Origin: a virus
Virus record (IMG/VR): IMGVR_UViG_3300045988_140118
Length of the DNA: 64,000 bases
Direction: 5' to 3' (one strand)
Shown: positions 1,399-62,534 of the stretch, one piece after another
How the letters are laid out: each line of letters opens with the position of its first letter
Position numbering within the stretch: position 1 is the stretch's first letter
Translations under genes and position numbers: made by a program
The notes under the pieces: generated by a model
Databases searched by the model: none
What the model was told of the DNA's origin: nothing
The model's input: only the letters and a program-made list of their open reading frames with translations

Positions 1399-1399
1399 T

Positions 1400-10760: not shown

Positions 10761-10768
10761 TTCGTATT

Positions 10769-11516: not shown

Positions 11517-11547
11517 TTTTGATCTTTTCTAAAAACATCTTATTTTT

Positions 11548-11757: not shown

Positions 11758-11778
11758 TTTTTAAAAAGAATCCCACAA

Positions 11779-12996
11779 ATGAAGTATTATTTTTTAAAGT
11801 CTGTTTATGAAACAGGATCGACCACTTCGGTAAGGTTAAGAGCATTGCCAGGTCAAGCTTTCGAGACAGGTGCCCGTATTGACCCTTCTATTAATGTCGC
11901 AGGAAAACCGTTTATACGTACAGCCTATCCTATAGGTACTGTCTTTGGTTGTTCCGATCTGGTCTCTTTTGGCACTTATTATAAAACGGAGTCGTATTTT
12001 CCTATAAATATTTCGGAGAGTGATTTGAAAGATAAATATCATAAAGCTCCTGAAGATATGCTACGTGCGTATGAATCGTTTATAGGACTTGCTCTTTCCG
12101 AAACAGACGGTGATTCTGAGGAAGCTGAGGAACCGCCAGTTAAGAATACCTATCTTTCCAAAATGAAGAAGAATCCTAATTTTAAGGTTCCCACTGTTCT
12201 TTCTGATGGATTCTACGTACAAGAAGATATTTGGTATTTATTGTTACGTAATATCAGATCACAAGTAAATACTTTAATGGTAGGTCCTACAGGAACGGGA
12301 AAGACCGAATTGGTAATGCTTGCTTGCAAGAAGCTTGGAATTTCATGCTCTGTTTACGATATGGGAGCCATGTATGATCCGGTAGCTGGTTTGTTAGGTG
12401 TTCACCGTCTGCATGAAGGGGGAGTTTCTGTTTTTGACTACGCTAAATTTACGAAAGATATTTCAAAACCTGGAGTAGTTCTTTTGGACGAACTTTCCCG
12501 TGCTCCGGCTACTACTAATAATATTTTGTTTCCTTGTCTAGACTCTAGACGATCTCTCCCGGTTGAAATTGCCGGAGGAAATGATTTGAGGGAAATACCC
12601 GTTTCTCCGGAGTGTTGTTTTATAGCTACTGCAAATATAGGGTCTGAATATACCGGTACTATGGATATTGACCGTGCGTTGCAAAACAGATTTTTCCCTC
12701 TGGAACTCTCTTATTTGCCGCCTGATGAAGAGATCAATGTTTTGAAAAAACGCTGCTTTATTGGGCGTGTTAATGCGGGACATATTGTAGCGGTTGCAAA
12801 TAATATACGTGACTTATATATAAAACAGGAGATTAGTTGTTCCATCTCTACAAGAGAAACATTAATGGCTGCTGAGTTGGTAGCCGATGGTTGGTCTGTT
12901 TTAAGATCTTTGGAACTTTCATTCTTGCCTCTGTTTGAAGGTTCAGGAAGTGATGGGGAAAGGGGTATCGTGAAAAAAATCATTTCAAGTAGATAG
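11779..12996 (+). CDS. MoxR/CobS-like AAA+ ATPase
   Basis: Walker A GPTGTGKTE, Walker B VVLLDELSRA, and ATAN...DRALQNRF. Confidence 0.85.
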   Translation: MKYYFLKSVYETGSTTSVRLRALPGQAFETGARIDPSINVAGKPFIRTAYPIGTVFGCSDLVSFGTYYKTESYFPINISESDLKDKYHKAPEDMLRAYESFIGLALSETDGDSEEAEEPPVKNTYLSKMKKNPNFKVPTVLSDGFYVQEDIWYLLLRNIRSQVNTLMVGPTGTGKTELVMLACKKLGISCSVYDMGAMYDPVAGLLGVHRLHEGGVSVFDYAKFTKDISKPGVVLLDELSRAPATTNNILFPCLDSRRSLPVEIAGGNDLREIPVSPECCFIATANIGSEYTGTMDIDRALQNRFFPLELSYLPPDEEINVLKKRCFIGRVNAGHIVAVANNIRDLYIKQEISCSISTRETLMAAELVADGWSVLRSLELSFLPLFEGSGSDGERGIVKKIISSR

Positions 12997-12999
12997 TTT

Positions 13000-13167
13000 A
13001 TGGTTAAGAGTAAGCAGTTTCCGGTTTCTAAGCCTAGGTATGGTAAACTTTTATATGATGGTAAGGTTATACTGTCAAATAGGGCTTTTCCGATATTGCA
13101 GGCAGAAAAACGAAGACTGCTTGCTACCGGATATTATAAAAAGGAATTACTAAAAATAACATATTGA
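13000..13167 (+). CDS. small hypothetical protein (55 aa)
   Basis: ATG ORF that exactly fills the gap between the AAA+ and vWA genes; below the ORF-track cutoff. Confidence 0.35.
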   Translation: MVKSKQFPVSKPRYGKLLYDGKVILSNRAFPILQAEKRRLLATGYYKKELLKITY

Positions 13168-13168
13168 T

Positions 13169-17223: not shown

Positions 17224-17640
17224 ATGCCAAAAATAAAAAAAGTAAAACTTACGAGGAAAAAAAGACTTTCCAAAGAGCTTATTCGAAAGAATAATGTGGT
17301 TGTGAAAAAACCTACTAGTAAAAGTTGTTGGAAGTCTTTCGAAGCTCTTGTTGCTAAGTTTTTCAGTACCCGCAGAGTTCCTTTGTCCGGAAGTAATAGT
17401 GGACATGGAACGAATAGTGACTCTTTGCATGATAAGTTGTACATTGAGTGCAAAGTACGCCAGAAAATTTCTTTGTGGCAGCTATTTACAGATACGGAAG
17501 AAAAAGCAAAGGTGGAGAAAAAGTTTCCCGTAGTTGCCATTAAACAAAAAGGAGGCAAAGGGTATCTGTTGGTGCTTCGTCCAGAAGATTTGCAAGAGAT
17601 CGCAAAAATTCAACGGGAAGGTATTGCAGAACCGGAATAA
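17224..17640 (+). CDS. small PD-(D/E)XK nuclease, paralog of 11163-11516
   Basis: E...PLSGSNSG...D...YIECK pattern. Confidence 0.5.
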   Translation: MPKIKKVKLTRKKRLSKELIRKNNVVVKKPTSKSCWKSFEALVAKFFSTRRVPLSGSNSGHGTNSDSLHDKLYIECKVRQKISLWQLFTDTEEKAKVEKKFPVVAIKQKGGKGYLLVLRPEDLQEIAKIQREGIAEPE

Positions 17641-17646
17641 TTATTG

Positions 17647-17654
17647 TATGTTTG
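17647..17654 (+). promoter_or_regulatory. -7 box TATGTTTG
   Basis: TAnnTTTG upstream of the SpoVS-like gene. Confidence 0.35.
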
Positions 17655-17704
17655 TAAATCTCAAAAACAAAGTTACCGAAGGACTAATTTAAATCGTGGA
17701 AATT

Positions 17705-17989
17705 ATGGAAGTAGTTAACGAGACACAGAAAGTACTTCGGTGTTCAACAGCCACAGATGCTAATAAACTTGCTGAAAGTATCTATTCTTCTTGTAAGAAT
17801 GATGCTAATGTTAAGTTAAGCATCCGTGTTATCGGAGCAGGCGCTTTGAATCAAGCAGTGAAAGCCTCTATCCTAAGCAATAAATTCTTTTCTAAAAAGG
17901 GATTGCGTGTAGGTTTAGTTCCTTCATTTCAAGATTCAGAGAACAACGTAACAGTGATAGAACTAAAAGTATTTCTTTTAAAGAATTAA
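17705..17989 (+). CDS. SpoVS-like protein
   Basis: IGAGALNQAVKA matches the conserved SpoVS core as I recall it. ATG 17705 preferred over GTG 17696. Confidence 0.8.
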   Translation: MEVVNETQKVLRCSTATDANKLAESIYSSCKNDANVKLSIRVIGAGALNQAVKASILSNKFFSKKGLRVGLVPSFQDSENNVTVIELKVFLLKN

Positions 17990-18226: not shown

Positions 18227-18260
18227 AAAAAGCCTTTTCATTCACTTGGAGAGGCTTTTT
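18227..18260 (+). terminator. terminator-like hairpin
   Basis: AAAAAGCCT pairs with AGGCTTTTT (9-bp stem, 16-nt loop). Confidence 0.5.
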
Positions 18261-18275
18261 CATTATAAAAATTAT

Positions 18276-18995
18276 ATGGAGAAAAAAGTATTATTGTTTT
18301 CCGGAGGTTTTGACTCCACTTTACAGGAATGGCTGATTAAACCTGATGTGTTATTGTATGTGGATATGAAGACTTCTTATTCGGAGGTTGAAATAGAATT
18401 TTTAAAAACACTTCCCACTTATTATACAGATCGGCTTATTATAAAAGAGTGCCCCCTAGGAGAGTATGAACGTGAAAATAAGTACCTCCCTTATCGAAAT
18501 TTGATATTAGGGACTCTTGCTATGGAATATGGTCAACACGTTTACTTTGGGTTTAATGAAGCTGATAACGCTCCTGATAAAGATGATCTCTTCTTAAAAA
18601 GAATCACTTCCTTATTCAAACATTTGAACGTAAATTGTATTGGAGATATGGGATGGGAGAATAGGAAATTCAGTTTTAACGCTCCTTTTAAACATCTGAC
18701 AAAAACAGAACTGGTTGCCAAATGCCTTAAAAAAGGAATGGACCCTGAAGTAATCAGACATATCCGGTCTTGCTATGACGGAGTTTCTAAGATAGGTTGT
18801 GGTGTTTGTCGCCCTTGCATAAATCGAGCAGTGTCTCTGATAAATAACGGTATTTATTCAGATGACCTCTTTGATGCTCCGGTTACTCCTGAGAGTATAA
18901 AAGACTTGATCAAGAAAACCGAGGAATCTGAACACTCTAAAAATTATTATGCCGACCTTAAAAAAGCATATAAACGGATACGACAGAAGGGATAA
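18276..18995 (+). CDS. queC: QueC-like 7-cyano-7-deazaguanine synthase (PP-loop ATPase)
   Basis: N-terminal VLLFSGGFDST PP-loop and C-terminal Zn motif C-x9-CxxCxxC. ATG 18276 preferred over TTG 18246. Confidence 0.8.
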   Translation: MEKKVLLFSGGFDSTLQEWLIKPDVLLYVDMKTSYSEVEIEFLKTLPTYYTDRLIIKECPLGEYERENKYLPYRNLILGTLAMEYGQHVYFGFNEADNAPDKDDLFLKRITSLFKHLNVNCIGDMGWENRKFSFNAPFKHLTKTELVAKCLKKGMDPEVIRHIRSCYDGVSKIGCGVCRPCINRAVSLINNGIYSDDLFDAPVTPESIKDLIKKTEESEHSKNYYADLKKAYKRIRQKG

Positions 18996-19881: not shown

Positions 19882-20623
19882 AAATATTAAAAAACGAATT
19901 TCCCTAATTACAGAAGCAGGAGACGATATTGATGATTTGAAAGATTGCGTGTGTTCTTTCTTTGAAAAAGGGGGCTGTTCTGATTGTATCGGGTGTCCTA
20001 AAGATGAAGATTCGGTTTTAGGATGTAGGGACTACTACTTGGAAAAGATAAAAATGAATCCGATGGAATTATGGTCAGAGGATTTTGATAAACAAGTAGT
20101 CCTTTCCAGAGATAAAATATCTGTGGATTCTTTAGCCGGTATAGGACTTAATTGCGATTCTTGTATTATGTATGATAAATGCCCTTACTACAAGAAAGGG
20201 TATTCCTGTGCGATAGACTGGGTAGGAAGTAATAAACCGGGTACTCCTGCGGAGTTCATGGATTTCTTAGTTTCCACTCAATACGAGCGTGTGAAGAGAG
20301 CAGTAGTCATAGAAAAAATAGACGGTGGTGTGCCCGATGCTAATTTATCCGGAGAGTTGGATAGGTTACAATCTTTAGTTTTAGGACGTGTTGATATGGA
20401 TCGTGCGAAATTCTCAGTGAGTGTAGAAGCTTCAGGACCTTCTAGCGCTGCAAAAAGCGGTGGTATCTTAGCTGCTATTTTTGGGAAAAGTACACCTTCC
20501 GAACCGGAGCCGTTAGCCATTGCAGAGAAACCTGAATCCAGATCTGATATTACAGATATTACTGAGTATGAACCCGTAGAAGAACCTGTAAAGGTAAAAC
20601 GTAGAAAGAGAGGTGCCGAATGA
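19871..20623 (+). CDS. Cys-rich protein with acidic C-terminus
   Basis: Two Cys clusters (CVCSFFEKGGCSDCIGC and CDSCIMYDKCPYYKKGYSC); overlaps the dpdA stop. Confidence 0.55.
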   Translation: MLDENIKKRISLITEAGDDIDDLKDCVCSFFEKGGCSDCIGCPKDEDSVLGCRDYYLEKIKMNPMELWSEDFDKQVVLSRDKISVDSLAGIGLNCDSCIMYDKCPYYKKGYSCAIDWVGSNKPGTPAEFMDFLVSTQYERVKRAVVIEKIDGGVPDANLSGELDRLQSLVLGRVDMDRAKFSVSVEASGPSSAAKSGGILAAIFGKSTPSEPEPLAIAEKPESRSDITDITEYEPVEEPVKVKRRKRGAE

Positions 20624-20946
20624 CCACTGTAAAAAGACATGTTAGAAAAAGAAAAAATAGTGCCTCTGTAGTAAAGAAGCACTATCGTAAAGGAAGCACC
20701 CATAAAACAGTAAATGGCGTAAAGTATGTTTTTGTGGATGGTTTTTGGAAACACGATGACTACCCTAATGCTCCTAAAGCGGGGTGGACGTATGAACGTT
20801 TAGTGAAAGAACGTGCCAAGTACCAGAAAGATCTTGCTGATGGTTTGGCGGGAAGAGATATTTTGCCTCCTCGAAAATTAGGTCTCCTTACTAGGAGAAT
20901 TAAGAAAATAAATAGATTCCTGAAAGGAAAAACTCCCAAAATTTAA
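20620..20946 (+). CDS. basic double-heptad N-terminal module protein (paralog A)
   Basis: VKRHVRK...VKKHYRK at the N-terminus. Confidence 0.6.
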   Translation: MTTVKRHVRKRKNSASVVKKHYRKGSTHKTVNGVKYVFVDGFWKHDDYPNAPKAGWTYERLVKERAKYQKDLADGLAGRDILPPRKLGLLTRRIKKINRFLKGKTPKI

Positions 20947-27923: not shown

Positions 27924-28503
27924 ATATGGTTGTGAAAGCTGGTCGCCTGCCGAACCGTTTGAGGAAGCATATAAATGCGCTGACACTTTCCTTGACCGTT
28001 TGCAGATTGAGCATGATGATCTTGTAGAAAAGTATGACAAGTGCGAAAAGTTTGTAGATTCGGATAAGTTCCGTGAAATTGTACAAGAGGATTATCCGGC
28101 ATTTCTGTTATCATTGCAACGAAATGTGATGAATAGATATGGAAGTATTATTGAACAAAGAATGTCCATAGCTAAAGGAGAAACAAGCATTACAACACTG
28201 CCAAGAATGTCCTTTGGAGATGCAATCGAAGCGTTGAAGTTCGGTTTTGCCATCCGTAGAAAAGGCTGGAACGGTAAAGGTCTGATGGTATTCAAGCAAG
28301 TACCTGCCTACATAGAGAGTGACATCATTCCTAAGATGCAATCGCTTCCACAATCTGCAAAAGACCTTATTCTGAAAGGTAAAGGTTTTATTGACTATAC
28401 AAGTCAGTGCCTTATCTACAACGAGAATACCGGGCGTGCAGATTCATGGGTTCCGTCTATCAGTGATGTGTTTGCCGAAGATTGGGAGATTGTTACAAAA
28501 TAA
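27886..28503 (+). CDS. rest of the gp49-like domain fused to a DUF2829 (Tad2-like) domain
   Basis: GYHVKDEYGCESWSPAEPFEEAY then MSFGDAIEALKFGFAIRRKGWNGKG...SWVPSISDVFAEDWEIV. No ATG start (TTG only). Confidence 0.6.
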   Translation: MKKRKTGYHVKDEYGCESWSPAEPFEEAYKCADTFLDRLQIEHDDLVEKYDKCEKFVDSDKFREIVQEDYPAFLLSLQRNVMNRYGSIIEQRMSIAKGETSITTLPRMSFGDAIEALKFGFAIRRKGWNGKGLMVFKQVPAYIESDIIPKMQSLPQSAKDLILKGKGFIDYTSQCLIYNENTGRADSWVPSISDVFAEDWEIVTK

Positions 28504-28519
28504 TTTTAAAAAGTATTTT

Positions 28520-29584
28520 ATGCCAAAATATAGAAAAAAACCAGTAGTTATTGAAGCTGTTAGATTCATTGTTGGGGCAGAAGTTCCAGTAATGAATTTC
28601 TTAGGTTTAACAGAAGAGTATCAATTAGTAGACAGTAAAGCTGCTCCTATACATTATAGAAATGATGTTGCTGAAATATTTATATATCAACCAGAAGTAG
28701 CTTCTCTTTATATTTATACGTTAGAAGGAAAAATGGAGGCTAAAGACGGTGATTACATCATTAAAGGTGTAAACGGTGAATTTTATCCTTGTAAACCGGA
28801 CATCTTCGAGAAGACTTATGATCTTGCTGACGAAGATTCTGAAAGCCTTATTGTAGATACGATTTATTCCTCTTTTATGGGAGAAGTAAATAAATTCGGG
28901 ATCGGTTCTTTATGTACGTTTGTACGATTACAAGGGTGTAACCTCAGATGTTATAAACGAACTTGCGGATTTTTATGTGACACCCCTGAAGCTCTCTTAG
29001 TCAAGAAGAGTTTTCCTGAAAAAGAGAAGACAATTCCCTGTATAGTTGATACGGTGGAAAAACTGGGAAACAAAATAATCTGTTTAACCGGAGGAGAGCC
29101 TCTACTACAAGAGGGAGTTGAAACTCTTCTTAAAACGTTATCTTCAAAAGGGTATAACGTAGTAGTGGAAACTAATGGAAGTGTGGGTATTTCTAAGTAC
29201 CGAAACATAGAAAATGTTAGTTTTGTAGTAGACTATAAACTACCCTCGACAGGAGAAGATGGTAAAATGGATTCTACTGTGTGGCCTCTTATGAAAGCAG
29301 ATGACTATCTAAAATTTGTGGTTTCAAACGGCGATGACTTACTAAACCTACGTACATGGTTAGGACTTTACGCTGCTTCTTTTAAAGGAATTATTGCAAT
29401 AGGTTCTATGTGGGAAGTATGTTGTTTTAGTCAAGAGGAACTGTTGGCCCACATATCTTCTTTATCTGTGGAATTTCCCTCTGTAAGATTTTGCTTAAAT
29501 ATGCAAACCCACAAACTGATAAGCCTTTACGATCAGACTCCGAAACTTGACTTACAAAGGATAAAAATCAAAAAAGATTTGTAG
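28520..29584 (+). CDS. queE: QueE-like radical-SAM 7-carboxy-7-deazaguanine synthase fused to an N-terminal ~105-aa phage domain
   Basis: RLQGCNLRC...CDT, CLTGGEPLLQ and VVETNGS; N-terminal domain KKPVVIEAVRF...GDYIIKGVNGEFYPCKPDIFEKTY. Confidence 0.8.
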   Translation: MPKYRKKPVVIEAVRFIVGAEVPVMNFLGLTEEYQLVDSKAAPIHYRNDVAEIFIYQPEVASLYIYTLEGKMEAKDGDYIIKGVNGEFYPCKPDIFEKTYDLADEDSESLIVDTIYSSFMGEVNKFGIGSLCTFVRLQGCNLRCYKRTCGFLCDTPEALLVKKSFPEKEKTIPCIVDTVEKLGNKIICLTGGEPLLQEGVETLLKTLSSKGYNVVVETNGSVGISKYRNIENVSFVVDYKLPSTGEDGKMDSTVWPLMKADDYLKFVVSNGDDLLNLRTWLGLYAASFKGIIAIGSMWEVCCFSQEELLAHISSLSVEFPSVRFCLNMQTHKLISLYDQTPKLDLQRIKIKKDL

Positions 29585-49425: not shown

Positions 49426-50076
49426 ATGCAGAAAGAGAAACAAATAAAATCGTACCAGCGAAAAACCAAATCAGGTAAAGTAGTTACAGTAAAAGCACAT
49501 ACTGCTAAATATACTGCTGCCGACATGGCTGCTGAAGCATTGAGAAAAAAGCATGGTGCCGGTAATGAACTTGAAGGACTTAAAAGAAAATCTCCCGGTA
49601 ATAAAGAAAAACCATCTGAAAGGCAATCCAAGGAACTTCTACATTCATCGTCTGGAAAGGTATATAAGAGGGGTAGTTCTGGAGAACTCGTTGAGGTTAA
49701 CCCATCAAAGACCTCTAAGAAAAAAGAGACTAAAAAACCGAAACCCCGTTCTAATGCAAAGAGTAAGAATAGGACTATAGGTACAGGAGTTAATGGACCC
49801 GTTAAGAAGAGTCCCAAGACGAAAGATGTACTGCCCATTCCCGAAGCCAAAACTAAGAAACGCATGTCTCCAAAAAGTACAAAAAGAACTGGACACGCTG
49901 GGAAATCTACCCCTTTTAGTGGACAGACACAGCTTAAACAGGAAATGGCTATGTGGAAGAAATCTCCAACAAGTGCTATGGGAAAAGCAAGTAGGAATAA
50001 TATAACTAAACTTCTTCAAGAGAAGAAAAAGCAGGGTCATAAACTTACCAAAAGAGAAGAAGCCTTTTTGTGGTAG
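49426..50076 (+). CDS. Lys-rich protein with basic double-heptad N-terminal module (paralog B)
   Basis: IKSYQRKTKSGKVVTVKAHTAK, followed by about 190 aa of Lys/Ser/Pro-rich low-complexity sequence. Confidence 0.65.
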   Translation: MQKEKQIKSYQRKTKSGKVVTVKAHTAKYTAADMAAEALRKKHGAGNELEGLKRKSPGNKEKPSERQSKELLHSSSGKVYKRGSSGELVEVNPSKTSKKKETKKPKPRSNAKSKNRTIGTGVNGPVKKSPKTKDVLPIPEAKTKKRMSPKSTKRTGHAGKSTPFSGQTQLKQEMAMWKKSPTSAMGKASRNNITKLLQEKKKQGHKLTKREEAFLW

Positions 50077-50381: not shown

Positions 50382-50912
50382 ATGGGAACTATTACAAGAG
50401 TGTTTGAGTTTGATTGTGCCCATCGGGTAATGAATGAAAAAGTAAAATGTTTCAATTTGCATGGTCACAGGTTCAAAGCGGAAGTGACCCTTTCTTACTC
50501 AGAGAAAGCTGCTTTAGGTTATGCAACCGACTTTAAAGAATTGAAAAGGATTTTAGGTGATTTCATAGACAGGTTTTTAGACCATGCCTGTTTACTGAAC
50601 CCCGAAGATCTGGGTCTTATTACCATGTGCTCCGAAAATAAATGGCGCTTGTGGATTATGGGATTAGGACATCATGCGGATGTTAATCCTTCTGCTGAGA
50701 ATATTGCTTCTGAACTTTTCTACATCTTCAGACAGTTTTTTCCTAAAGACTCTCAAACCAGTATTGAGAAGATCCGTTTATACGAGACTCCTAATTGTTG
50801 GGTAGAGGTTACTGGCTACGACTATGAAGCCACAGAATCTTTTCAAAAAGAGATTATGAAGTGGAGAAACTCAAAAGGAACATTCAACTACGATATAAGA
50901 ACTGATATTTGA
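50382..50912 (+). CDS. queD: QueD-like 6-carboxytetrahydropterin synthase
   Basis: FEFDCAHRV...CFNLHGHRFKAEV...GYATDFKELK...LDHACLLN. Confidence 0.85.
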   Translation: MGTITRVFEFDCAHRVMNEKVKCFNLHGHRFKAEVTLSYSEKAALGYATDFKELKRILGDFIDRFLDHACLLNPEDLGLITMCSENKWRLWIMGLGHHADVNPSAENIASELFYIFRQFFPKDSQTSIEKIRLYETPNCWVEVTGYDYEATESFQKEIMKWRNSKGTFNYDIRTDI

Positions 50913-50913: not shown

Positions 50914-52566
50914 ATGCCAAAACTAAGGAAGAAAACTCCTGATGAAGAAGGGTATGTATTTCCCGCTACTGGTAAGAGTATAGATGATATACATACTGAA
51001 GACATTGCCGGAAAATCTATCTCTTTTGATGCCCACGAGATTACAGGTAAGATTATCGAGTTCGGGAAAGTCCTTACAGGAATCTCTTTGTACAAGTATC
51101 AAGAAGACATAGCTTATGGAATTATATATTCCGTCATTACTTTTTCCGGAGATGTAAAGACTGTGCTTCTTTCCAGACAGTCCGGTAAGTCTGAGGTAAT
51201 GGCATTTGTAATTGATACACTTACCGTTCTAATGCCGGCACTTGCAAATATTATCCCTGAGTTCGAACAATTCCAGACCGGATTTCGAATAGGACTGTTT
51301 GCTCCACAAAGTGATCAGGTAGAAACTACTTATTCCAGAGCACTTGCCAGAATTAATTCCGCTAATGCGGAAATGGTTTTAGATGACCCTGATATTGGTG
51401 TTTCTTTGGAAAGTGCCGTTCGTTTGCAATTAAGCAACGGTTCTTTTCTTGCCGGACAAACTGCCAGTAAACAATCTAAGATCGAGTCTAAAACTTATGA
51501 CCTAGTAATTGTTGAAGAGGCTCAGGACGTTGATGACTTTATTGTCAGCAAGTCCATAGAACCTATGCTTTCTTCTACTGCCGGAACTCTTATTAAAGTA
51601 GGTACTACTGGTATGACTAAGAATCACTTTTACTACGAGATTCAACATAACCGAAACAGTGACCGAAAACTAAAAGATCCCAGAGTACGGAATCATTTTG
51701 AGTATGACTATAAAAAGATTATTCAAGACCGTAAAAAGCAATATGATTTAGACCACAAACGTTTCCACCTTAATTACGAGGCGGATGTTTTGCGTAAAAA
51801 AGCTCGTTGGGGAGAAGACTCTCAGGCATTTAAACTTGCTTATGCGTTGATATGGGACTTGGAAAGCGGTATGCTTATTACCGATAAAGAGTATAATAAA
51901 CTTCTTAACCGTAAATTAGGCTATCAAGATCCTACCGAAAGAGACTTGGTAGTTGCTGGTCTGGATATTGCTAAAAGTCCTGCCAGCACTGTCTTGACTA
52001 TCGGAAAAGTTATCCCAAACGAAGATCCTTTTGAAAGAAAGAAAAAACAAATTCTTGCGTGGGTTGACCTGAAAGGACTTGACTATGAAGCTCAACACCG
52101 TGTTATCATGGATTGTATTGTCGATTTCAATATTTCTATTATCTTTGCGGATTATACAGGTGTCGGTAAGCCAGTAGTAGACCGTCTATCATTTGCTTGC
52201 GGAGAATATGTATCGGTTGTTCCGTACACATTTACTTCTCAGAGTAAATCGGATATGTGGTATAACTTCATTAACGAGATTCAGACGCAAAGTTTGATTA
52301 TCCCGGCTAATAAAACAGTTCGTGAATCTGAGGAATATAAATGCTTCGAGGAACAGATTAAAAACTGCCAAAAATATTATAACGGCTCTTACTTAGTCTG
52401 TGAAAAGTCGGAGGGATTTTTTGATGACTATGTAGATAGTACAGCTCTTATGTGTTTGGCGGGTAATGACGAACCGGAGATTGAAGACGAGATGGAGGTA
52501 ACTGACAATCCGTTGTACTCGAATATCTCAGATACAATTAATGCACTTAGAAGATACTCTTTTTAA
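50914..52566 (+). CDS. terL: terminase large subunit
   Basis: Walker A-like LSRQSGKSE and Walker B DLVIVEEAQ; 550 aa, upstream of the portal. Confidence 0.85.
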   Translation: MPKLRKKTPDEEGYVFPATGKSIDDIHTEDIAGKSISFDAHEITGKIIEFGKVLTGISLYKYQEDIAYGIIYSVITFSGDVKTVLLSRQSGKSEVMAFVIDTLTVLMPALANIIPEFEQFQTGFRIGLFAPQSDQVETTYSRALARINSANAEMVLDDPDIGVSLESAVRLQLSNGSFLAGQTASKQSKIESKTYDLVIVEEAQDVDDFIVSKSIEPMLSSTAGTLIKVGTTGMTKNHFYYEIQHNRNSDRKLKDPRVRNHFEYDYKKIIQDRKKQYDLDHKRFHLNYEADVLRKKARWGEDSQAFKLAYALIWDLESGMLITDKEYNKLLNRKLGYQDPTERDLVVAGLDIAKSPASTVLTIGKVIPNEDPFERKKKQILAWVDLKGLDYEAQHRVIMDCIVDFNISIIFADYTGVGKPVVDRLSFACGEYVSVVPYTFTSQSKSDMWYNFINEIQTQSLIIPANKTVRESEEYKCFEEQIKNCQKYYNGSYLVCEKSEGFFDDYVDSTALMCLAGNDEPEIEDEMEVTDNPLYSNISDTINALRRYSF

Positions 52567-52575: not shown

Positions 52576-54171
52576 ATGGGAATAGGTACTATGAATCCTT
52601 CAGGACCCGGTAGCTATAACGGCTATCCCGGTTCCGATTATTGGGCTGTAGACAGTCGGCCACTTAGCGAAGCTACAAATGTGCTTCGTTCTTTTGTTAC
52701 GCAGAATATCGTTCAAGATAACCAATGGGAAATAGATCGGTTGACCCGGTATTATTTGTTCTGGAAATTTTATGATGGACTTCATTACAAAGACTTTAAT
52801 GATGGGATGCTCTCTTTTAACTATATTCGAGCATTTATTGATAAAGTAAATATGTTCCTGTTGGGAGATGAAGCATTTACCTTTCATGTGAAAAGTTTCT
52901 ATTCTACACAGATAGATAACGAGCTTGAAAAAAATGCCGAGGAACTAATGATGTATCATTGGGGAAAGTCTAAGAAGGTTTCTCTCGCCTACGAGATGTT
53001 ACAAATGGGGGGAATTACAGGTGATTGTTGGTTAGGGGTTGACTGGATGCCTGATGACCTTGACAGATATTGTAAGATAAGTGTTTACGATAGCCGCCAG
53101 GTATTCCCCCATTTTAAAGGGGGAGACTTTAACAACATGGATGCTTTGCTGATTCGTATTCCTCTAGATGTGAAAGGAAATGCCCAACCTTACCGTTTGT
53201 ATGTAATCAGATGGACTCCCAAAAATATGGAGACGTGGTATCAGAAAGACGTTTCTATTGATGAAGATTCCGTAGTTAAGTATGACTATACGAAAACTAA
53301 AAATGTATATGGATTTATTCCGATCGTACACATTAAAAATAAACCTAATTCTTCCGGATTTTACGGTAAATCTGATGCAAACGATATATTGAAAATAAAC
53401 AAAGTATATAACGAATTAATTCAGCAAGTAAAGGCTGTCATTGATTATCATGTAACACCTACGACCGTAATTACTGGAGCTTCTGCTAAATCACTGAAAA
53501 AAGGACTTGGACAAATATGGTCAGGACTTCCTGCCGAAGCCAATGTGTTTAATTTAGGTCTTGATGTGGATCTATCTGCTACAGTTAATTTTATCAAAGA
53601 CTTAAAAACCGCTATGCACGAACTATCTGATGTTCCGGAAAACGCATTAGGTAAAATTCAAGCAATAAGCAATACTTCCGCAGCCGCTTTGCAGATTACT
53701 TATCATCCGCTATTACAGCAAGCGAATATAAAAGCTATGACTTATGGTGAAGGAATTGCCGAAGTAAACCGGATGATCTTTAGGATTCTTGATACGGTAG
53801 ATCCTGAAAACGAACGTCTAGTTAAAATTAAACAACTAAACCCCAATTTTCTTTCTGAGATGTTGGTAGAACCCGTTTTCGCTTATGGTTTCCCGAAAGA
53901 TAAGATGGATGAATTGCAACGTGCCCAGTTGGAACTTAATATGAAATTAGGTAGCAGACGTGAGATTATGGAACGTATGGGTAAACAGAACATTCCTGAA
54001 CTTTTGCAGGAGATTGATGACGATACTGTACAACAAGCCCTGTTACAAGTAGAGATTAATGAAATGGTTGCTGGCGGAAATCCTGAAGAATCTACAGAAG
54101 CACCTTCTCTTGAAACAGAAGATATTTCTGGAAATGAAGAATCTGTTAGCAGTGGTGAAATGACAGAATAA
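52576..54171 (+). CDS. portal protein
   Basis: 531 aa immediately after TerL, with an acidic C-terminus. Called from position and size. Confidence 0.7.
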   Translation: MGIGTMNPSGPGSYNGYPGSDYWAVDSRPLSEATNVLRSFVTQNIVQDNQWEIDRLTRYYLFWKFYDGLHYKDFNDGMLSFNYIRAFIDKVNMFLLGDEAFTFHVKSFYSTQIDNELEKNAEELMMYHWGKSKKVSLAYEMLQMGGITGDCWLGVDWMPDDLDRYCKISVYDSRQVFPHFKGGDFNNMDALLIRIPLDVKGNAQPYRLYVIRWTPKNMETWYQKDVSIDEDSVVKYDYTKTKNVYGFIPIVHIKNKPNSSGFYGKSDANDILKINKVYNELIQQVKAVIDYHVTPTTVITGASAKSLKKGLGQIWSGLPAEANVFNLGLDVDLSATVNFIKDLKTAMHELSDVPENALGKIQAISNTSAAALQITYHPLLQQANIKAMTYGEGIAEVNRMIFRILDTVDPENERLVKIKQLNPNFLSEMLVEPVFAYGFPKDKMDELQRAQLELNMKLGSRREIMERMGKQNIPELLQEIDDDTVQQALLQVEINEMVAGGNPEESTEAPSLETEDISGNEESVSSGEMTE

Positions 54172-54502: not shown

Positions 54503-55219
54503 ATGGATCATACCGAAGAAACAACAGTAACTATCCCAGAAAGTATTACAATCGGCGGAATCTCTTATGTAGTTAGAGACACTCCGGAATTGCTTAAGTT
54601 CATGCAAGCCGTTGCTAAAGTTGAGAAAAACAAGATGTACACGCAGTTCGAACTTTTGCGGAAACAAATCAACCAGTTATCAAAGACTCCTGTATCTACT
54701 ACCCCTTTGGATGCAACATCATTGATAGCCGAGTTGAAAGAATCTTTTGTAACCAAAGAAGATTTGGCGAACACAGTAAAAGAAGCGTTGCAGCCGGTTA
54801 TTTCTTACAATCAGCAAACGCAGCAGGAAACTCTTGAAACATTCCGGGAGAAACTACTTAAAGAAAATGACGGAAAATGTATTCCTGAACTGGTCACTGG
54901 AAACAGCAAAGAGGAACTTCTTCAATCCCTTGAAAAATCAAAAGAGCTTTATTCGAAGTATGGTGGAGGTCCGGTTGGTCGCCCGCAAGACGCTAGTCCT
55001 GTAGTAGATCCTACTTTGGCACGCCAAGCTGCTAATCTCGCTCCTGAAGATATTGCTCCCAGATATATTCCTCCTGTTCCTGCTCCGGCACCTAGAGTTT
55101 CTGCTCCCGAATTTACAGGACAATCTGGACTTGAAAATATCAAGAGCCTCTCTCCTGAAGAGTTCGCTGCCAAACGTGCCGAACTTGAAAATACACTTAA
55201 ACAGTTGTATGGAAACTAA
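54503..55219 (+). CDS. putative scaffolding protein
   Basis: Coiled-coil-rich with a Pro/Ala-rich tail; directly upstream of the capsid gene. Confidence 0.5.
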   Translation: MDHTEETTVTIPESITIGGISYVVRDTPELLKFMQAVAKVEKNKMYTQFELLRKQINQLSKTPVSTTPLDATSLIAELKESFVTKEDLANTVKEALQPVISYNQQTQQETLETFREKLLKENDGKCIPELVTGNSKEELLQSLEKSKELYSKYGGGPVGRPQDASPVVDPTLARQAANLAPEDIAPRYIPPVPAPAPRVSAPEFTGQSGLENIKSLSPEEFAAKRAELENTLKQLYGN

Positions 55220-55261: not shown

Positions 55262-56263
55262 ATGATTACATTGTTGACATTCTTACTGGCTACGTTAGGT
55301 AGCATAGTAGTAGGATTTGCTTTCGGTGAGACTACTGCTGCTGGTGCTAATACTGGTGGCTATACAGCTATACCACAAGCAGTCCGTGACTTTTATTCAC
55401 GTGAGGTTATGTTTAAAGCACAGCCTCGTTTGCGTTTTTTGCAGTTTGCTAAAATAAAACGAGACTTACAGGCCGTTCGTGGAAAATCTATTGTATTTGT
55501 TAAATACGGAAACCTTGAAGGTGGTGGTTCTTTGGAGGAAAGTGATGTGCTGACTCCGGAAGGTATGACTACTTCTGAAATTAGTATCCCGGTTAAAGAA
55601 CAGGGAAATGCTGTTCAGGTTACTGAATACCTTTTGAGAACTTCTATTTTGGATGTGTTGGGTGATGCTTCAAAACTATTGGCTAATAACGTTGCTAAGG
55701 TATTGGATACTCAGTTCCGTGATACTGTTTTGAAAACACCTAATACTGTATATGGAGGTACTGCTACACAATTATCGGAACTTTCTACAAGCAATGGTGC
55801 GTTTACTACAAAAACAGTAAAAGATGCCGTTGAAATTTTGGCTACTCACAATGCACCGAGAATTGCAGGTGACTACTACGTTTGTGTCGCTCACCCCCAT
55901 CAATTGAGACAGTTGCGTGACGATAAGGAATGGATTAATGCCAATACTTATATGGGACGTAGACAGTTGTATATCGGTGAAGTAGGTATGTACGAAGGAA
56001 CTATCTTTATTGAAACTACTCAGATGCCTATGCTTAACGCTGCGGGAATTAAAGCTAAGTATGGTTCCGGGGCTACTGTAGATACTGCTTATGAAGCCGT
56101 GTTCTTCGGAGACAACGCTTATGGTTGGGGAGTTGCTTTGGACGTAGAACTTCGTGATGACGGTGTGGTAGAACTTGGACGTAAACATACTCTTGGCTGG
56201 TATGGTATTTGGGGAACCGGCATTATCGAGGAGAATAACATTGTAAAAGCTCTCACTGTATAA
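55262..56263 (+). CDS. major capsid protein (HK97-fold type)
   Basis: 333 aa; position after portal and scaffold; YSREVMFKAQPRLRFLQFA is capsid-like from memory. Confidence 0.65.
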   Translation: MITLLTFLLATLGSIVVGFAFGETTAAGANTGGYTAIPQAVRDFYSREVMFKAQPRLRFLQFAKIKRDLQAVRGKSIVFVKYGNLEGGGSLEESDVLTPEGMTTSEISIPVKEQGNAVQVTEYLLRTSILDVLGDASKLLANNVAKVLDTQFRDTVLKTPNTVYGGTATQLSELSTSNGAFTTKTVKDAVEILATHNAPRIAGDYYVCVAHPHQLRQLRDDKEWINANTYMGRRQLYIGEVGMYEGTIFIETTQMPMLNAAGIKAKYGSGATVDTAYEAVFFGDNAYGWGVALDVELRDDGVVELGRKHTLGWYGIWGTGIIEENNIVKALTV

Positions 56264-57542: not shown

Positions 57543-57995
57543 ATGGAAATACAAGTAAAGTCCTATCAGAGAAGGACAAAATCTGGAAAGCTTATCACTG
57601 TAAAACCCTACTCCCGTAAAGGTGATAAAAAAGCTAAAGTAACCGGACAAAAAGTTCGCGGAAATGAACTAGTGTCTATGAAGCTAGAGAATTACGTTAA
57701 TAATCTTGGTCCGGACGATTTTAAGGAACTGGTTGATACTCTGGAAGAGTACGCTGATACTACTTTGTGGAGTAAAACAGGAACCGTCAAAAGACAGAAT
57801 GTTATAAATCTTATCAGAGAAGAGGCAGCTCACTCAGGAGAAGGTCCTAATAGGAATCCTATGGATTTTGTTGTTAAATCTCTTATGAAAGGTAAAGCGA
57901 AAACCCCCTTAACCTCTAAACAAGCTGATAAGAGATATGCGTTTTATGACGATAAGACCCTTAAAAAAGTACGTAATAGAGTAAGAAGCACTTAA
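57543..57995 (+). CDS. basic double-heptad N-terminal module protein (paralog C)
   Basis: VKSYQRRTKSGKLITVKPYSRK. Confidence 0.6.
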   Translation: MEIQVKSYQRRTKSGKLITVKPYSRKGDKKAKVTGQKVRGNELVSMKLENYVNNLGPDDFKELVDTLEEYADTTLWSKTGTVKRQNVINLIREEAAHSGEGPNRNPMDFVVKSLMKGKAKTPLTSKQADKRYAFYDDKTLKKVRNRVRST

Positions 57996-57996
57996 T

Positions 57997-58434
57997 ATGT
58001 TAGTAGATAAAGCAAGATTTTTGTCCTACCAGAACTTGTTTTATAGGAAGCTGCAACAGACTCCTTATAAAATTCAGCTTGAAGTGGTTACTGTGCAGAG
58101 AGTGGAACCTACTGAAGACTTTTCTTTTGATGCTTTCGTAGGAGACAGTCCGAGAGAATCTACGTTTTATAGTTTTCAAGCTCTTTACGAAAAGGAGATT
58201 CCAAACCGCACCCGTGAGAAATACGGCCTTCCTAAAGAAGTAAACGGGGTTGTTTATCTCTCCCCTTTACAATTAGTACCCAAATTAGGTGACTACCATC
58301 TGAACTGGAATAAGACGAAAGTACATTTTGAAGGAAGAGTACAAGTAGTTGATAAAATAGTCTACCTTGAAGAATTATACGGAAGCTGTGTAGGCTTACA
58401 GATATTTATCAAGGATGATTTAAAAGGAGGTTAA
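57997..58434 (+). CDS. hypothetical structural protein
   Basis: Packed ORF. Confidence 0.55.
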   Translation: MLVDKARFLSYQNLFYRKLQQTPYKIQLEVVTVQRVEPTEDFSFDAFVGDSPRESTFYSFQALYEKEIPNRTREKYGLPKEVNGVVYLSPLQLVPKLGDYHLNWNKTKVHFEGRVQVVDKIVYLEELYGSCVGLQIFIKDDLKGG

Positions 58435-58436
58435 CT

Positions 58437-58745
58437 ATGACAAAAGTAAAGACACATAAGCGTAAAGGAAAGAATAAGGTTTCCGTTGTTAAGCAGCACA
58501 ATCGTAAAGATAAGGTGTCTGCTTTTCGTGGTGCTAAAGAGTTCTCTGAAAAACAACGAGATAAACTTTCTTCCAAAGGAGAAGCATTACCTGATGGTTC
58601 TTACCCAATCGCCAGTAAACGGGATTTGGCAAACGCTATTTCTTCTTACGGACGTGCTAAGAATCCTGAGATTGTTAAACGATGGATCAAGAAACGTGCT
58701 AAAGCTCTTGGTGCTTGTGACATGATCCCTGCAAACTGGAAGTAA
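58437..58745 (+). CDS. basic double-heptad N-terminal module protein (paralog D)
   Basis: VKTHKRKGKNKVSVVKQHNRK; the C-terminal part has LPDGSYPI...AISSYGRAKNP. Confidence 0.6.
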   Translation: MTKVKTHKRKGKNKVSVVKQHNRKDKVSAFRGAKEFSEKQRDKLSSKGEALPDGSYPIASKRDLANAISSYGRAKNPEIVKRWIKKRAKALGACDMIPANWK

Positions 58746-58747
58746 GT

Positions 58748-58990
58748 ATGGCTACTAACCAAAAAGATATTGATCATATTAATGCGCATAAGAATTTGGA
58801 CGTTCAAACTAGTGTGATTCCTCGTTATCCTGAGATAGAGAAAATTGTTCGGTACGAACGTACTCCGGAACACTATCGTGAAGAGAACGAGGTTGCCGCT
58901 TATGCCGCTATGGGAAGACCTAATGCCAATACCAATACTAAGAGTTGGTATCGGGATATTTATGAATTTTATCAGAACAATGAATACTAA
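58748..58990 (+). CDS. hypothetical protein
   Basis: Packed ORF. Confidence 0.5.
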   Translation: MATNQKDIDHINAHKNLDVQTSVIPRYPEIEKIVRYERTPEHYREENEVAAYAAMGRPNANTNTKSWYRDIYEFYQNNEY

Positions 58991-59021
58991 GATCTATTTT
59001 ATTAACTAAAAACAAATTGTT

Positions 59022-59135
59022 ATGCCTACAAAATCTAAAAAGACAAAAGAGGAAAATCCACCTGTAAACCCCAAAGGTACTAAAAAAGATCCTCCTATTG
59101 GAACTGGAGTAAATGGACCCGTAATAAAGAGATGA
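59022..59135 (+). CDS. 37-aa Lys/Pro-rich peptide
   Basis: MPTKSKKTKEENPPVNPKGTKKDPPIGTGVNGPVIKR; shares IGTGVNGPV with 49426-50076; fills a gap. Confidence 0.4.
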   Translation: MPTKSKKTKEENPPVNPKGTKKDPPIGTGVNGPVIKR

Positions 59136-59136
59136 T

Positions 59137-59595
59137 ATGCGTAAATTCCCTAGATTACCAAAAGCCTTACTTAAAACACCTCCTGGCTTTAAAAAACCAA
59201 AGGTGTCTGACTTTAAGACTGACATGCAACATTTAGGGGAAGAAATTGCCGAAGATTTTAAAGAGACAGTAATTGCCAACATAGAGGAGAATAATTACAA
59301 TTTCGAAAATGCTCCTAGTACAGTAAAACAAAAAGGCAGTGATACCCCTCTGATAAATACTCAGGAATTAGTAGATTCTATCTATAGGGAAGGGACTGTT
59401 GTTTCAGTAGAGAATACTCCACGAGACGATAGTCCCTTAACTAATTTAGAGTTGGCTATGGTTCTTGAATATGGTACAAAGGATAGGCATATTCCTGCAC
59501 GTCCGGTCTGGAGAAATACATATCGTGACTTTAAAGAGGAAGCACGGGAAAAAGTTGAAGAGTTTTTTAAACTTCAAAAGTCTAAGAAGAAATGA
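59137..59595 (+). CDS. HK97 gp10-like neck/tail-completion protein
   Basis: EYGTKDRHIPARPVWRN resembles the gp10-family motif. Confidence 0.45.
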   Translation: MRKFPRLPKALLKTPPGFKKPKVSDFKTDMQHLGEEIAEDFKETVIANIEENNYNFENAPSTVKQKGSDTPLINTQELVDSIYREGTVVSVENTPRDDSPLTNLELAMVLEYGTKDRHIPARPVWRNTYRDFKEEAREKVEEFFKLQKSKKK

Positions 59596-60059
59596 CAGAG
59601 ATTACCATTAAAGGATATTCAAGAAGATCTCGTAAAGGGAACTTGGTCAAAGTAAACAGCTACAAACGGAGGGTAGGAAAGAAAGGAGTCATCTCTCCCA
59701 AAAAGACTTCTCCTGTCAAAGAAGCTGCTACTTCTACACCTACACCCGGTGCTGAGATAAAAACAAAACTTAGTCCTGAAGAACTTGCACGTAGACGTGC
59801 TTGGGATAAAGAGGCTAGAAGAGCCAGTATGTCTGCTTATGGCGGACGTGCCGAAACAAAAGAAGAGTGGCAGAGACGAGTCCAACGTGAAGAGGATGAT
59901 CGAAAATCTAACGAGATTCCCGGATATAAACCTAAACGGTCAACTCCCCCTGCTAGAGAGATTAAGAAAAAGAAAGCCGACATCTTTGCCCGCATTGAAG
60001 ACAAGATCGCTCGTTTTTCTGAAAAATACGGTAAGAAGAAATATAAACGCTATTTATAA
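59592..60059 (+). CDS. basic double-heptad N-terminal module protein (paralog E)
   Basis: IKGYSRRSRKGNLVKVNSYKRR. Confidence 0.6.
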   Translation: MTEITIKGYSRRSRKGNLVKVNSYKRRVGKKGVISPKKTSPVKEAATSTPTPGAEIKTKLSPEELARRRAWDKEARRASMSAYGGRAETKEEWQRRVQREEDDRKSNEIPGYKPKRSTPPAREIKKKKADIFARIEDKIARFSEKYGKKKYKRYL

Positions 60060-60373
60060 TGGATACTTTATTTATTAAACTATTTGAGATTTTCTCTCTC
60101 CCTTACATGTTTTCCGTAATTTGTGGAAGCTACTTTATCATTAAGATGGTTGACTTTCTAAACGGCGAGGCTAAAGTACCTTGTTGGTTGAAAAGAACGA
60201 TCACCTTTTTTGTTGGTGCTCTCCTTTTCGGTGTTTTCGTTGCGTATACCGATACTTCGTGCGAGTGCCTTATATCTTCTTACTTTTGCGCTGTATTTAC
60301 TTACGATGCGGCTATAAAAGTGCTGATTAAAAAATTTGGTATAGACTATAAAAAAGATGCTTCGGACGATTAA
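60059..60373 (+). CDS. three-helix membrane protein (holin-like topology)
   Basis: Three hydrophobic segments with a charged C-terminus. Confidence 0.45.
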   Translation: MDTLFIKLFEIFSLPYMFSVICGSYFIIKMVDFLNGEAKVPCWLKRTITFFVGALLFGVFVAYTDTSCECLISSYFCAVFTYDAAIKVLIKKFGIDYKKDASDD

Positions 60374-61555: not shown

Positions 61556-61926
61556 TGGGCGATGATATTGCTGAAAACTTAGAGCTTATGTGTGACAGGG
61601 ATAATCCACAGGATAAAAAAATCCTCCTGCTCGCAAGGTTAATGCAAGGACGATTTGAGACTCTTTCTAACAATCAGGAAGAGCTTAAAAAATCTCTGGA
61701 GCATACCAATAAAAAACTAGATCGTATTCTAGATACTATTGAACAGTACGAGAGTGCTGCCGAGAATTGCCCTGTGTCTAAAAACAAAGATGATATCGAA
61801 ACACTGATCTTATTTTTTAGGTACCCTAAACTAAGTTTCATCTTAATCATTGGCATTGCTGCTCTCCTTGGAGGCTTAGTAAGTAATGGTTTCACAGATA
61901 TGATAAAAGCATTATTAGGAGTATGA
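61555..61926 (+). CDS. C-terminally anchored membrane protein (holin candidate)
   Basis: Coiled coil plus transmembrane segment LSFILIIGIAALLGGLV; immediately upstream of the amidase. Confidence 0.45.
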   Translation: MGDDIAENLELMCDRDNPQDKKILLLARLMQGRFETLSNNQEELKKSLEHTNKKLDRILDTIEQYESAAENCPVSKNKDDIETLILFFRYPKLSFILIIGIAALLGGLVSNGFTDMIKALLGV

Positions 61927-62534
61927 AAAAATTAGTGATTGTTCTAGATCCTGCACATGGTGAGAATGTTGCGGGAAAATGTTCTCCCGATAAAACCCAT
62001 TATGAATACTTATGGAGTCGGGAAAGATGTAAGGCTTTAAAAAGTCTTTTGGAGGATAGAGGTTATCGAGTAGTGTTCACTACAGACTCTATCAATGAAC
62101 CGGGATTATCGAAAAGAAAGAATTTTGCTTCTGCATTAAAGGTTGAAAAAGGTCAATTAAAACTTCTTATTTCTCCACATAATAATGCAGCAGGACGTGG
62201 TGATAACTGGATGACTGCTACCGGTATCGAAGTATGGACTTCTCCGGGGGTTACTAAATCCGATGAATGTGCTGATATTATCATAGACCAGCTTGCAAAA
62301 GACTTTCCTGATATAAAAATGCGCTTAAATTCTTCTCAATGTCTACAAAAAGATAAAGAGGCGAATTTTACCGTTTTAATGGGTGCCGATTATATGGCCG
62401 TATTAATAGAATGGTTATTTCAGGACAATAAAAAGGATGTGGAACTTCTCAAAGACGTTACTGTCAATAAACGTTTTGAAAAGTCATTAGTAGAAGCTAT
62501 CGAAAGAATCAATAATCATTTCTCTAAGGTATGA
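61923..62534 (+). CDS. N-acetylmuramoyl-L-alanine amidase (Amidase_3-type endolysin)
   Basis: VLDPAHGENVAGK, LLISPHNNA, GIEVW, FTVL and IEWLFQDN fit the Amidase_3 pattern. Confidence 0.8.
   Translation: MKKLVIVLDPAHGENVAGKCSPDKTHYEYLWSRERCKALKSLLEDRGYRVVFTTDSINEPGLSKRKNFASALKVEKGQLKLLISPHNNAAGRGDNWMTATGIEVWTSPGVTKSDECADIIIDQLAKDFPDIKMRLNSSQCLQKDKEANFTVLMGADYMAVLIEWLFQDNKKDVELLKDVTVNKRFEKSLVEAIERINNHFSKV

Follow-up and report, generated by a model that had tools for sequence, protein, structure and literature searches.

A short basic module, predicted to form a two-stranded β-ribbon, heads otherwise unrelated proteins of an uncultured phage and its relatives

The 64,000-nucleotide stretch of viral DNA recorded in IMG/VR as IMGVR_UViG_3300045988_140118 (the window, at its full length) encodes five very basic proteins that begin with the same doubled, strongly cationic module of about 25 residues. 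This module is conserved at the protein level, is predicted to form a single β-ribbon, and is a sizeable unnamed domain family outside every curated library searched. Our preferred interpretation, to which we give a probability of roughly 0.4, is that the ribbon acts as an autonomous polyanion- or DNA-binding element that tethers accessory proteins to the packaged genome or the neck for delivery; that its ligand is DNA, that the proteins reside in the virion and that they are co-ejected is what we infer. In kind, the ribbon appears to be a short peptide module, portable between phage proteins that are probably associated with the virion.

A sequence-only reading of the window had described two basic heptads at five N-termini, which it did not recognise as a named domain, fused to unrelated C-terminal parts and in three cases interleaved with head and neck genes. 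This description stands, and the five N-termini, in genes starting at 20620, 49426, 57543, 58437 and 59592 (each protein is named here by its gene start), read as quoted there. They fall into two subtypes, type A (49426, 57543 and 59592) being one residue longer than type B (20620 and 58437), and orthologues retain the subtype. A regular expression for two [VIL][KR]x[HYF]x[RK] units 3–12 residues apart, run in six frames, finds the five sites only. A 25-position hidden Markov model (HMM) built from the five copies scores them at 34.6–49.4 bits (57543, 49.4; 49426, 40.9; 59592, 40.0; 58437, 35.6; 20620, 34.6); the next-best open reading frame (ORF) of the window reaches 7.2 bits, and the best non-module ORF over the window and the loci of Bacteroides phage BS162P1 reaches 10.9 bits. 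No sixth copy was found in the window, a richer HMM included. With leave-one-out HMMs, each real module outscores 1997–2000 of 2000 composition-preserving shuffles, the scores of both type-B copies and of 59592 being modest (11–16 bits). Because shuffles rarely match the real modules, the signal lies in residue order and not only in richness in lysine and arginine. Where residues are identical, their codons differ in about half of cases (from 0 of 5 to 8 of 15 codons are the same per pair), the module copies share a pairwise nucleotide identity of 0.40–0.68, and the DNA upstream of them is dissimilar. Differing codons at conserved residues indicate conservation and selection of the protein; together with the unlike upstream regions they rule out a DNA-level repeat or a shared 5′ element.

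In 78 non-redundant instances, the doubled heptad takes the form of a repeated VKx[HY]xR unit around a KxGK turn. Conservation in the first half is V/I3 99%, K4 88%, H/Y6 99%, R8 96%, K11 92% and G13 83%, and in the second half V18 98%, K/R19 90%, H/Y21 99% and R23 65%, which gives the consensus [VI]-K-x-[HY]-x-R-[KR]-[TSG]-K-[SNT]-G-K-x-[VI]-x-V-[KR]-x-[HY]-x-R. The corresponding pattern in the window, [VI]Kx[HY]xR[KR]-xK[ST/N]GKxx(x)-V[KR]x[HY]xR, occurs in exactly five ORFs, and as a 25-mer peptide the module reads IQVKSYQRRTKSGKLITVKPYSRKG. When 1.84 billion cluster representatives (50% identity) were searched exhaustively with the profile at E ≤ 0.001, at least 453 clusters proved to carry it. 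Among the best 150 of these 453, 124 have a single N-terminal copy, with the conserved V at residue 4–7 in all 124, and 111 of these 124 are members of the 49426 family, the largest set of orthologues in the database matches, whose hypervariable K-rich tails span 50–650 aa. Scans with a degenerate DNA pattern yielded 45 matches in IMG/VR, all 45 of them HMM-confirmed modules, and 113 stretches in metagenomes with 104 ribbon ORFs. Conservation beyond compositional bias, which the earlier reading had proposed to check by profile searches, is thus seen both in the cluster count and against the shuffles. A chance similarity of K/R-rich segments, or the protein shadow of a repeated DNA or RNA element at gene starts, could draw on the K/R-richness of the region, the AT-rich genome (37.6% GC) and the modest leave-one-out scores, yet such an artefact is effectively refuted by the more than 20 bits that separate the module from all other ORFs of the window, by the shuffles and the codons, and by the 453 clusters and the IMG/VR matches.

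A tblastn search with the module consensus found it in 2 of 50,697 phage records (BS162P1 and MT835482.1) and in 0 of 72,556 PLSDB plasmids, and its presence in only two GenBank phages, neither of them well studied, explains why it is still unnamed. Residues 1–30 of the five proteins match no family in Pfam-A 2025 (E ≤ 1), PHROGs v4 (E ≤ 0.1) or NCBIfam 20.0 (E ≤ 1), and a profile search of PDB sequences with the module was empty at E ≤ 10.

An AlphaFold2 run on the 57543 protein, with a 27-sequence alignment, predicts residues 2–26 as a single long two-stranded antiparallel β-ribbon, with strands 2–5/8–11 and 17–20/23–26 and a turn at 12–16. The predicted local distance difference test (pLDDT) is 91–96 for residues 1–20 and 81 for residues 21–30, and the five models have similar mean pLDDT (72.4–75.0). 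For the full 58437 protein the mean pLDDT is 80, the ribbon is less confident (62–73), and helices follow it at 38–47, 61–73 and 77–91. The turn is a five-residue TKSGK in 57543 and KGKNK in the shorter 58437 module. In the model, residue alternation would give each face of the ribbon Val, His/Tyr, Lys and Arg, and such mixed, basic faces suit an exposed arm and not a core-packing piece. The nearest shapes in Foldseek, at E > 2 and thus analogies only, are hairpins that clamp nucleic acid, those of Tn5 transposase, the coronavirus N protein N-terminal domain (N-NTD) and ribosomal proteins.

All five proteins are very basic (isoelectric point (pI) 10–10.8, net charge +15 to +40), their first 30 residues alone carry +8 to +11, and the module begins at residue 2–5, i.e., at the extreme N-terminus. 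BLAST shows no matches among the five C-terminal parts. The 57543, 58437 and 59592 genes stand in the head–neck block, and the start of 59592 overlaps the stop of the Neck1/tail-completion gene (Table 1). The 49426 gene, upstream of QueD and the large terminase, starts with the ATG at 49426, where its orthologues and the 216-aa cluster P0012 also begin; a hypervariable, K-rich, low-complexity tail follows its module. In 58437 the module is fused to a three-helix ALPDGS(F/Y)PI...YGRAK domain.

The portability of the module is seen in a clade of ~90-kb gut Bacteroides phages, in which it stands N-terminally on 5–10 genes per genome. Relatives with a head protein at least 57% identical have 3–10 ribbon genes per 20-kb locus, always with the module at the N-terminus, and more distant ones (head protein 40–47% identical) have none at the loci examined. 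In one of the latter, L036 (head protein 45% identical), the homologue of the 57997–58434 ORF is followed immediately by Neck1 with no module genes between, which indicates that the ribbon genes are clade-specific accessory insertions in the head–neck block; no homology was found between the window 60357 protein and the gene after Neck1 in L036. Positional orthologues of 57543 and 49426 keep the ribbon, and the remainder has diverged past BLAST detection: the 57543 orthologue L010:12093 aligns over residues 1–25 only, and 49426 orthologues over residues 1–29 only, the C-terminal part of 57543 varying across the clade. Positional orthologues of 20620 and 58437 are conserved over their full length, the C-terminal domain of 20620 having 67% identity to BS162P1, and those of 59592 moderately. 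A ribbon gene lies directly downstream of Neck1 in 4 of 4 clade members checked (the window, BS162P1, L028 and L034). No 57543 orthologue was detected in the BS162P1 genome, where an I-HmuI-like HNH homing endonuclease (L003 2244–2825; record 17243–17824) fills the slot; BS162P1 also has an additional ribbon paralogue (L002 7445–7780) beside its 49426 orthologue.

The C-terminal two-thirds of 58437 is in itself a widespread stand-alone family of 69 aa (e.g., P0281 and P0258), usually module-free. Its signature, ALPDGS(F/Y)PI...DLxNAI..YGRAK...RAKALG (residues 35–102 of window 58437–58745), has no Pfam model; Foldseek gave no PDB match for the three-helix domain, and a weak PHROG match (phrog_80, E 0.066) leads to the C-terminal region in a family of head-maturation proteases. 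One related contig, L030 (IMGVR_UViG_3300020576_002643), has ten ribbon ORFs in 19 kb (1013–4055 and 13579–14851), among them a tandem row of very small and extremely basic proteins of 47–163 aa. At 1908–2315 of this contig, a NUMOD4/HNH-like ORF has a C-terminal ribbon whose coding sequence overlaps the beginning of the following ribbon gene. This apparent HNH-module fusion prompted a comparison with AP2/ERF-type sheets, which was negative: hhalign of a 57-sequence module alignment with the AP2 domain of AtERF1 gave a probability of 0.2% over 5 columns.

Outside the clade, the module appears in more varied architectures. Large multi-domain proteins have 2–5 internal copies at domain junctions, and their Pfam partners include InPase (8 proteins), LPD1 (4), ParB_N with HTH_ParB and an SNF2 helicase (4) and ART-PolyVal (2), as well as Topoisom_I (TopoIB), RadC, C5 DNA methylase, SAM lyase and a cupin. 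Six carriers (P0006, P0021, P0037, L093, L097 and L150) are polyvalent, with at least two disparate activities, and their Pfam matches fall outside the module positions. In contig L046 (logan SRR12927082_86804), six consecutive module genes (starts 4449, 4957, 5554, 8228, 9109 and 9842) follow the portal, each built as a 20–65-aa leader, [LIV]-x-E, the ribbon and an effector; two effectors are Alt-like ADP-ribosyltransferases. By its sequence this run looks like a dedicated cargo cassette. The portal of L046 (1498–4155) is itself fused to a PI3/PI4-kinase-like domain, a small ORF (4192–4446) separates it from the ribbon genes (4449–10603), and one of the six ribbon genes encodes an 885-aa protein that combines five ribbons with a cupin domain.

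In Mu G/P2 S-type tail-completion proteins (L081, L090 and L065; PF05069), the ribbon fills the H-x-x-G/IPARP loop. These proteins match phrog_26 together with phrog_5/phrog_222, the latter two also matched by the window Neck1, whose own H-x-x-G ... IPARP loop is short (LEYGTKDRHIPARP) and module-free. Chromosomal genes of Armatimonadota encode a signal peptide and two tandem ribbons with nothing else; by the pattern used, such secreted forms seem confined, among 185,579 species representatives, to this phylum (Capsulimonas, Chthonomonadaceae). In the examples inspected (L047–L055; L044 6001–6357), the Sec signal peptide and tandem ribbons are followed by a short K-rich tail in proteins of ~80–135 aa. 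Finally, predicted ORFs of 29–40 aa on metagenome contigs consist of Met and the ribbon alone, e.g., MAKKRHYVKGHTRKGKGGKRIRVKGHYSK. One of these, on L162, exactly occupies the gap between two genes of a + strand operon; the neighbours of the mini-ORFs have no PHROG annotation.

The preferred interpretation brings these contexts together. The module would be a self-contained, strongly cationic two-stranded ribbon with a binding activity of its own, nucleic acid or some other polyanion being the most likely ligand. As an add-on arm, it would hold accessory proteins to the packaged genome or to the end of the DNA that lies in the neck, and these would ride into the cell together with the DNA. The five window proteins would then be clade-specific internal or neck-associated accessory proteins, and in other phages the ribbon would head each effector unit of injected polyvalent proteins. 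The occurrence of 2–5 copies per polypeptide, the tandem pairs of Armatimonadota and the ribbon-only mini-ORFs all argue for an activity of its own and not a mere address tag, and the range of carriers, which takes in phages of unrelated head and portal types as well as free-living bacteria, points to a generic ligand and not to a phage-specific receptor. In the necks of tailed phages, the genome end is located at the tail-completion/Neck1 protein. Placement in or beside this protein, the extreme charge and conserved aromatic residues of the exposed ribbon, its multiplicity in DNA-acting polyvalent proteins and the basicity of the five proteins favour a nucleic-acid ligand. The ribbon inside the Mu-like tail-completion protein and the separate ribbon gene after Neck1 in the clade read, as gene arrangements, as a fused-versus-split pattern.

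Several observations weigh against this interpretation. Foldseek found no significant match for the 58437 model or for the isolated ribbon, and the 20620 gene lies amid replication and 7-deazaguanine genes, outside the structural block. The secretion of the Armatimonadota proteins hints at a shared ligand outside the cytoplasm, which may be a polyanion and not DNA, and the ribbon could equally bind protein by β-augmentation. Moreover, the sole fusion of the module to a nuclease, that of L030, may be a read-through artefact rather than genuine.

The sequence-only reading had proposed a portable targeting or DNA-binding module, possibly a packaging or ejection signal. The parts that hold are that the module is portable, selected in its own right and tied to virion-delivered proteins; a packaging signal of the T4 type fits poorly. 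In T4, some ten N-terminal residues are enough to load foreign proteins, the internal proteins are basic, and cleavage occurs after L/I-x-E (PMC9026906). The likeness to the T4 capsid-targeting sequence (CTS) of IPI, IPII, IPIII and Alt is evident: a short N-terminal peptide stands on unrelated, mostly basic, non-essential proteins (PMC9026906), and it is tied to packaged and ejected effectors including an ADP-ribosyltransferase, for which the Alt-like enzymes of L046 are the counterpart. A CTS-like module, docking cargo on a receptor of the scaffold, portal or capsid interior during prohead assembly, would agree with this precedent, with the strict N-terminal position in the Bacteroides-phage clade, with the sharing of the module by unrelated C-terminal parts and its three genes in the head–neck block, and with the Alt-like and polyvalent carriers near portal genes; we nevertheless consider it rather unlikely. 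The T4 CTS is short (~10 residues), without a β-ribbon, strictly N-terminal and removed by gp21 at L/I-x-E, whereas the module has 25 residues, is often internal or repeated and also occurs on structural and bacterial proteins. Its multiple internal copies, the neck-protein loop insertion, the secreted bacterial proteins and the predicted mini-ORFs with no cargo would be unexpected for such a signal, and the unrelated head genes among carriers run contrary to a specific receptor. In the window, [LI]xE is absent within 35 residues after the module in all five proteins and absent anywhere in 20620, 58437 and 59592, and the PHROGs and Pfam scans of ORFs from the portal to the neck genes gave no prohead-protease match on those covered. 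In L046, [LIV]xE precedes the ribbon, so that the leader would be the removable signal; there is a weak case that T4-like cleavage there would make the ribbon the N-terminus of the mature protein. Other lineages have h-x-K-[AS] at this position (LEKARVKAH, LLKSRVKAH), and [LIV]xE may merely extend the first strand. A clamp for nucleic acid or another polyanion would fit more of these contexts than a T4-type packaging signal.

The remaining alternatives give the ribbon a different partner. It may bind protein, either by β-augmentation into the portal, neck and tail-completion rings or by sliding in the electronegative lumen of the tail tube, and thereby place small proteins at the exit channel or go out at the head of unfolded cargo. 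This neck-docking or ejection-leader role, which we regard as unlikely, accords with the insertion of the module in the Mu-like tail-completion/Neck1 superfamily and with the clade module gene that adjoins Neck1; each processed polyvalent unit would begin with a ribbon, and the lack of a purely hydrophobic face suits an exposed arm. The secreted Armatimonadota proteins and the position of 20620 do not fit it, and phmmer searches of PDB with the module-bearing tail-completion proteins and the window Neck1 returned nothing useful, leaving no PDB relative of the neck proteins. By analogy with cationic β-hairpin peptides, the ribbon might instead bind lipopolysaccharide, phospholipid or peptidoglycan-associated polymers and, in phages, help ejected proteins to act at the envelope or cross it. 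The Sec-exported tandem ribbons of Armatimonadota, with nothing else attached, and the very high positive charge combined with aromatic residues speak for this idea; we find it distinctly improbable, since the partner domains in phages (ParB, SNF2, TopoIB, methylase, InPase and Alt-like ADP-ribosyltransferase) are overwhelmingly cytoplasmic and directed at DNA or nucleotides, and the ribbon has neither a hydrophobic face nor a transmembrane segment.

Among the closest described systems are the polyvalent proteins of phages and conjugative elements. Iyer et al. 2017 (PMC5512222) predict that phage polyvalent proteins are packaged and injected with the DNA, and the large module carriers have domains that are hallmarks of the class. 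The five window proteins differ in being 102–216 aa long with at most one recognisable C-terminal unit each. Word searches of the main text of that paper found no description of a ribbon element, and no Pfam LPD model covers the ribbon; the module thus joins the polyvalent-protein world by company and not by homology to a described domain. In the model, the exposed basic, aromatic-bearing two-stranded ribbon with its Gly turn, sometimes in multiple copies, would resemble cationic nucleic-acid-binding arms (the comparison set comprised HU/IHF β-arms, AT-hooks, hairpin extensions of ribosomal proteins, the basic finger of coronavirus N-NTD and the Tn5 clamp hairpin), but there is no detectable sequence or profile relationship, and these arms form a functional class, not a homologous family. 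Some members of Phage_tail_S (PF05069; Mu G/P2 S) and PHROG Neck1 bear the module, yet as an insertion or neighbour and not as part of the fold, and most members, the window Neck1 included, are without it. The KxYKxGKxW motif is the n-region of the signal peptide in Gram-positive serine-rich adhesins and is followed by a hydrophobic core; it shares with the module an N-terminal K-x-Y ... G-K, but the module has no hydrophobic core and the resemblance is superficial.

To our knowledge, little is established outside a small number of model phages about which proteins enter the cell with the DNA, and sequence does not reveal them. The ribbon is therefore of interest as a candidate sequence marker for virion-delivered cargo in uncultured gut phages. 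It might even be a general and hitherto unrecognised tag by which phages mark the proteins that their virions deliver, an arm for DNA tethering or ejection heading every mature cargo unit, from the small internal proteins of gut Bacteroides phages to every processed piece of a polyvalent effector, which we hold to be possible but doubtful; if so, its presence would predict injected phage proteins, and it could serve to load foreign proteins into unrelated phages. If the ribbon binds DNA or the neck, it would represent a route of packaging and co-ejection unlike the scaffold-directed one of T4 and would offer a 25-residue handle with which proteins could be loaded into therapeutic Bacteroides phages. 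Whatever its function, a ribbon model would improve the annotation of polyvalent proteins by marking unit boundaries, and BS162P1 offers a cultivable system in which the ribbon can be tested.

Table 1. Coordinates of the module genes, of the other annotated genes of the window, and of related loci.
Record	Feature	Position	Strand	Details
Window	20620 protein	20620–20946	+	108 aa, pI 10.8; module residues 2–25 (nt 20623–20694); type B
Window	49426 protein	49426–50076	+	216 aa, net charge +40; module residues 5–29 (nt 49438–49512); type A
Window	57543 protein	57543–57995	+	150 aa, pI 10.0, net charge +15; module residues 3–27 (nt 57549–57623); type A
Window	58437 protein	58437–58745	+	102 aa, basic; module residues 2–25 (nt 58440–58511); type B
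Window	59592 protein	59592–60059	+	155 aa, net charge +26; module residues 4–28 (nt 59601–59675); type A
Window	QueC-like	18246–18995	+	PF06508, E 8e-17
Window	Weak radical-SAM protein, possible QueE	28391–29584	+	under Pfam cut-off
Window	QueD/PTPS	50382–50912	+	PF01242, E 4e-30; directly upstream of large terminase
Window	Large terminase	50914–52566	+	late block
Window	Portal	52576–54171	+	late block
Window	238-aa ORF without annotation	54503–55219		between portal and head genes
Window	Major head protein	55262–56263	+	phrog_1357, E 2e-55; anchors the head–neck block holding three module genes
Window	Neck1/tail-completion protein	59137–59595	+	phrog_222, E 1.7e-19; phrog_5
Window	Endolysin	61923–62534	+	late block
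L028	Neck1, then module gene	2861–3298; 3318 (start)		
L034	Neck1, then module gene	13729–14157; 14232 (start)		
BS162P1 (L003)	Neck1, then module gene	4141–4614; 4646 (start)		
L160	Ribbon-only mini-ORF	669–758		
L162	Ribbon-only mini-ORF	5470–5568		
L146	Ribbon-only mini-ORF	~3087		
L172	Ribbon-only mini-ORF	~6059		
L135, L173, L180, L117	Ribbon-only mini-ORFs			

Every gene of the window is on the + strand. A replication block encodes a DnaB-like helicase, a primase, a family-A DNA polymerase, RecA and a MoxR-type AAA ATPase. Three genes of the 7-deazaguanine pathway, which leads to queuosine and archaeosine precursors, are present (QueC-like, possible QueE and QueD/PTPS), and on this gene content the phage DNA probably carries a 7-deazaguanine-derivative modification. 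A near-identical uncultured virus, IMGVR_UViG_3300045988_142269, has a 57543 protein of 98% amino acid identity, and identical or near-identical copies of the 216-aa 49426 protein occur on ~90-kb contigs, one of them labelled 'Myoviridae sp. ctByu2'. The sole cultured relative is BS162P1 (OP172706.1, 88.9 kb, host B. salyersiae BSC162), in which the products of the module-bearing CDSs are WAX08794, WAX08793, WAX08805, WAX08809 and WAX08868. Compared with GenBank phages by megablast, the structural block gave no match, and the literature yielded nothing on BS162P1 or on virion proteomics of related Bacteroides myophages.

Directly after the 59592 gene and inside the neck gene block, the ORF at 60059–60373 (104 aa) resembles a multi-pass membrane protein and is possibly holin-like; the endolysin follows 1.5 kb downstream. 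In other carriers, the residues around the ribbon show recurrent features. On ~50–90-kb phage contigs (P0183–P0200), many proteins of 47–71 aa consist of a type-B ribbon and a paired-cysteine CxxC tail (e.g., ...GGCSSCGE and ...SCKSC), which suggests a possible zinc knuckle joined to the ribbon. On a high-GC viral contig (L056/L158), two giant proteins of 1847 and 1012 aa (4280–9820 and 10347–13382) have several ribbons preceded by QLxLFG (EQLELFG, EQLALFG, QQGLFG); this matches the binding motif QLxLF of the bacterial β-sliding clamp and could be either a coincidence or a clamp-tethering element.

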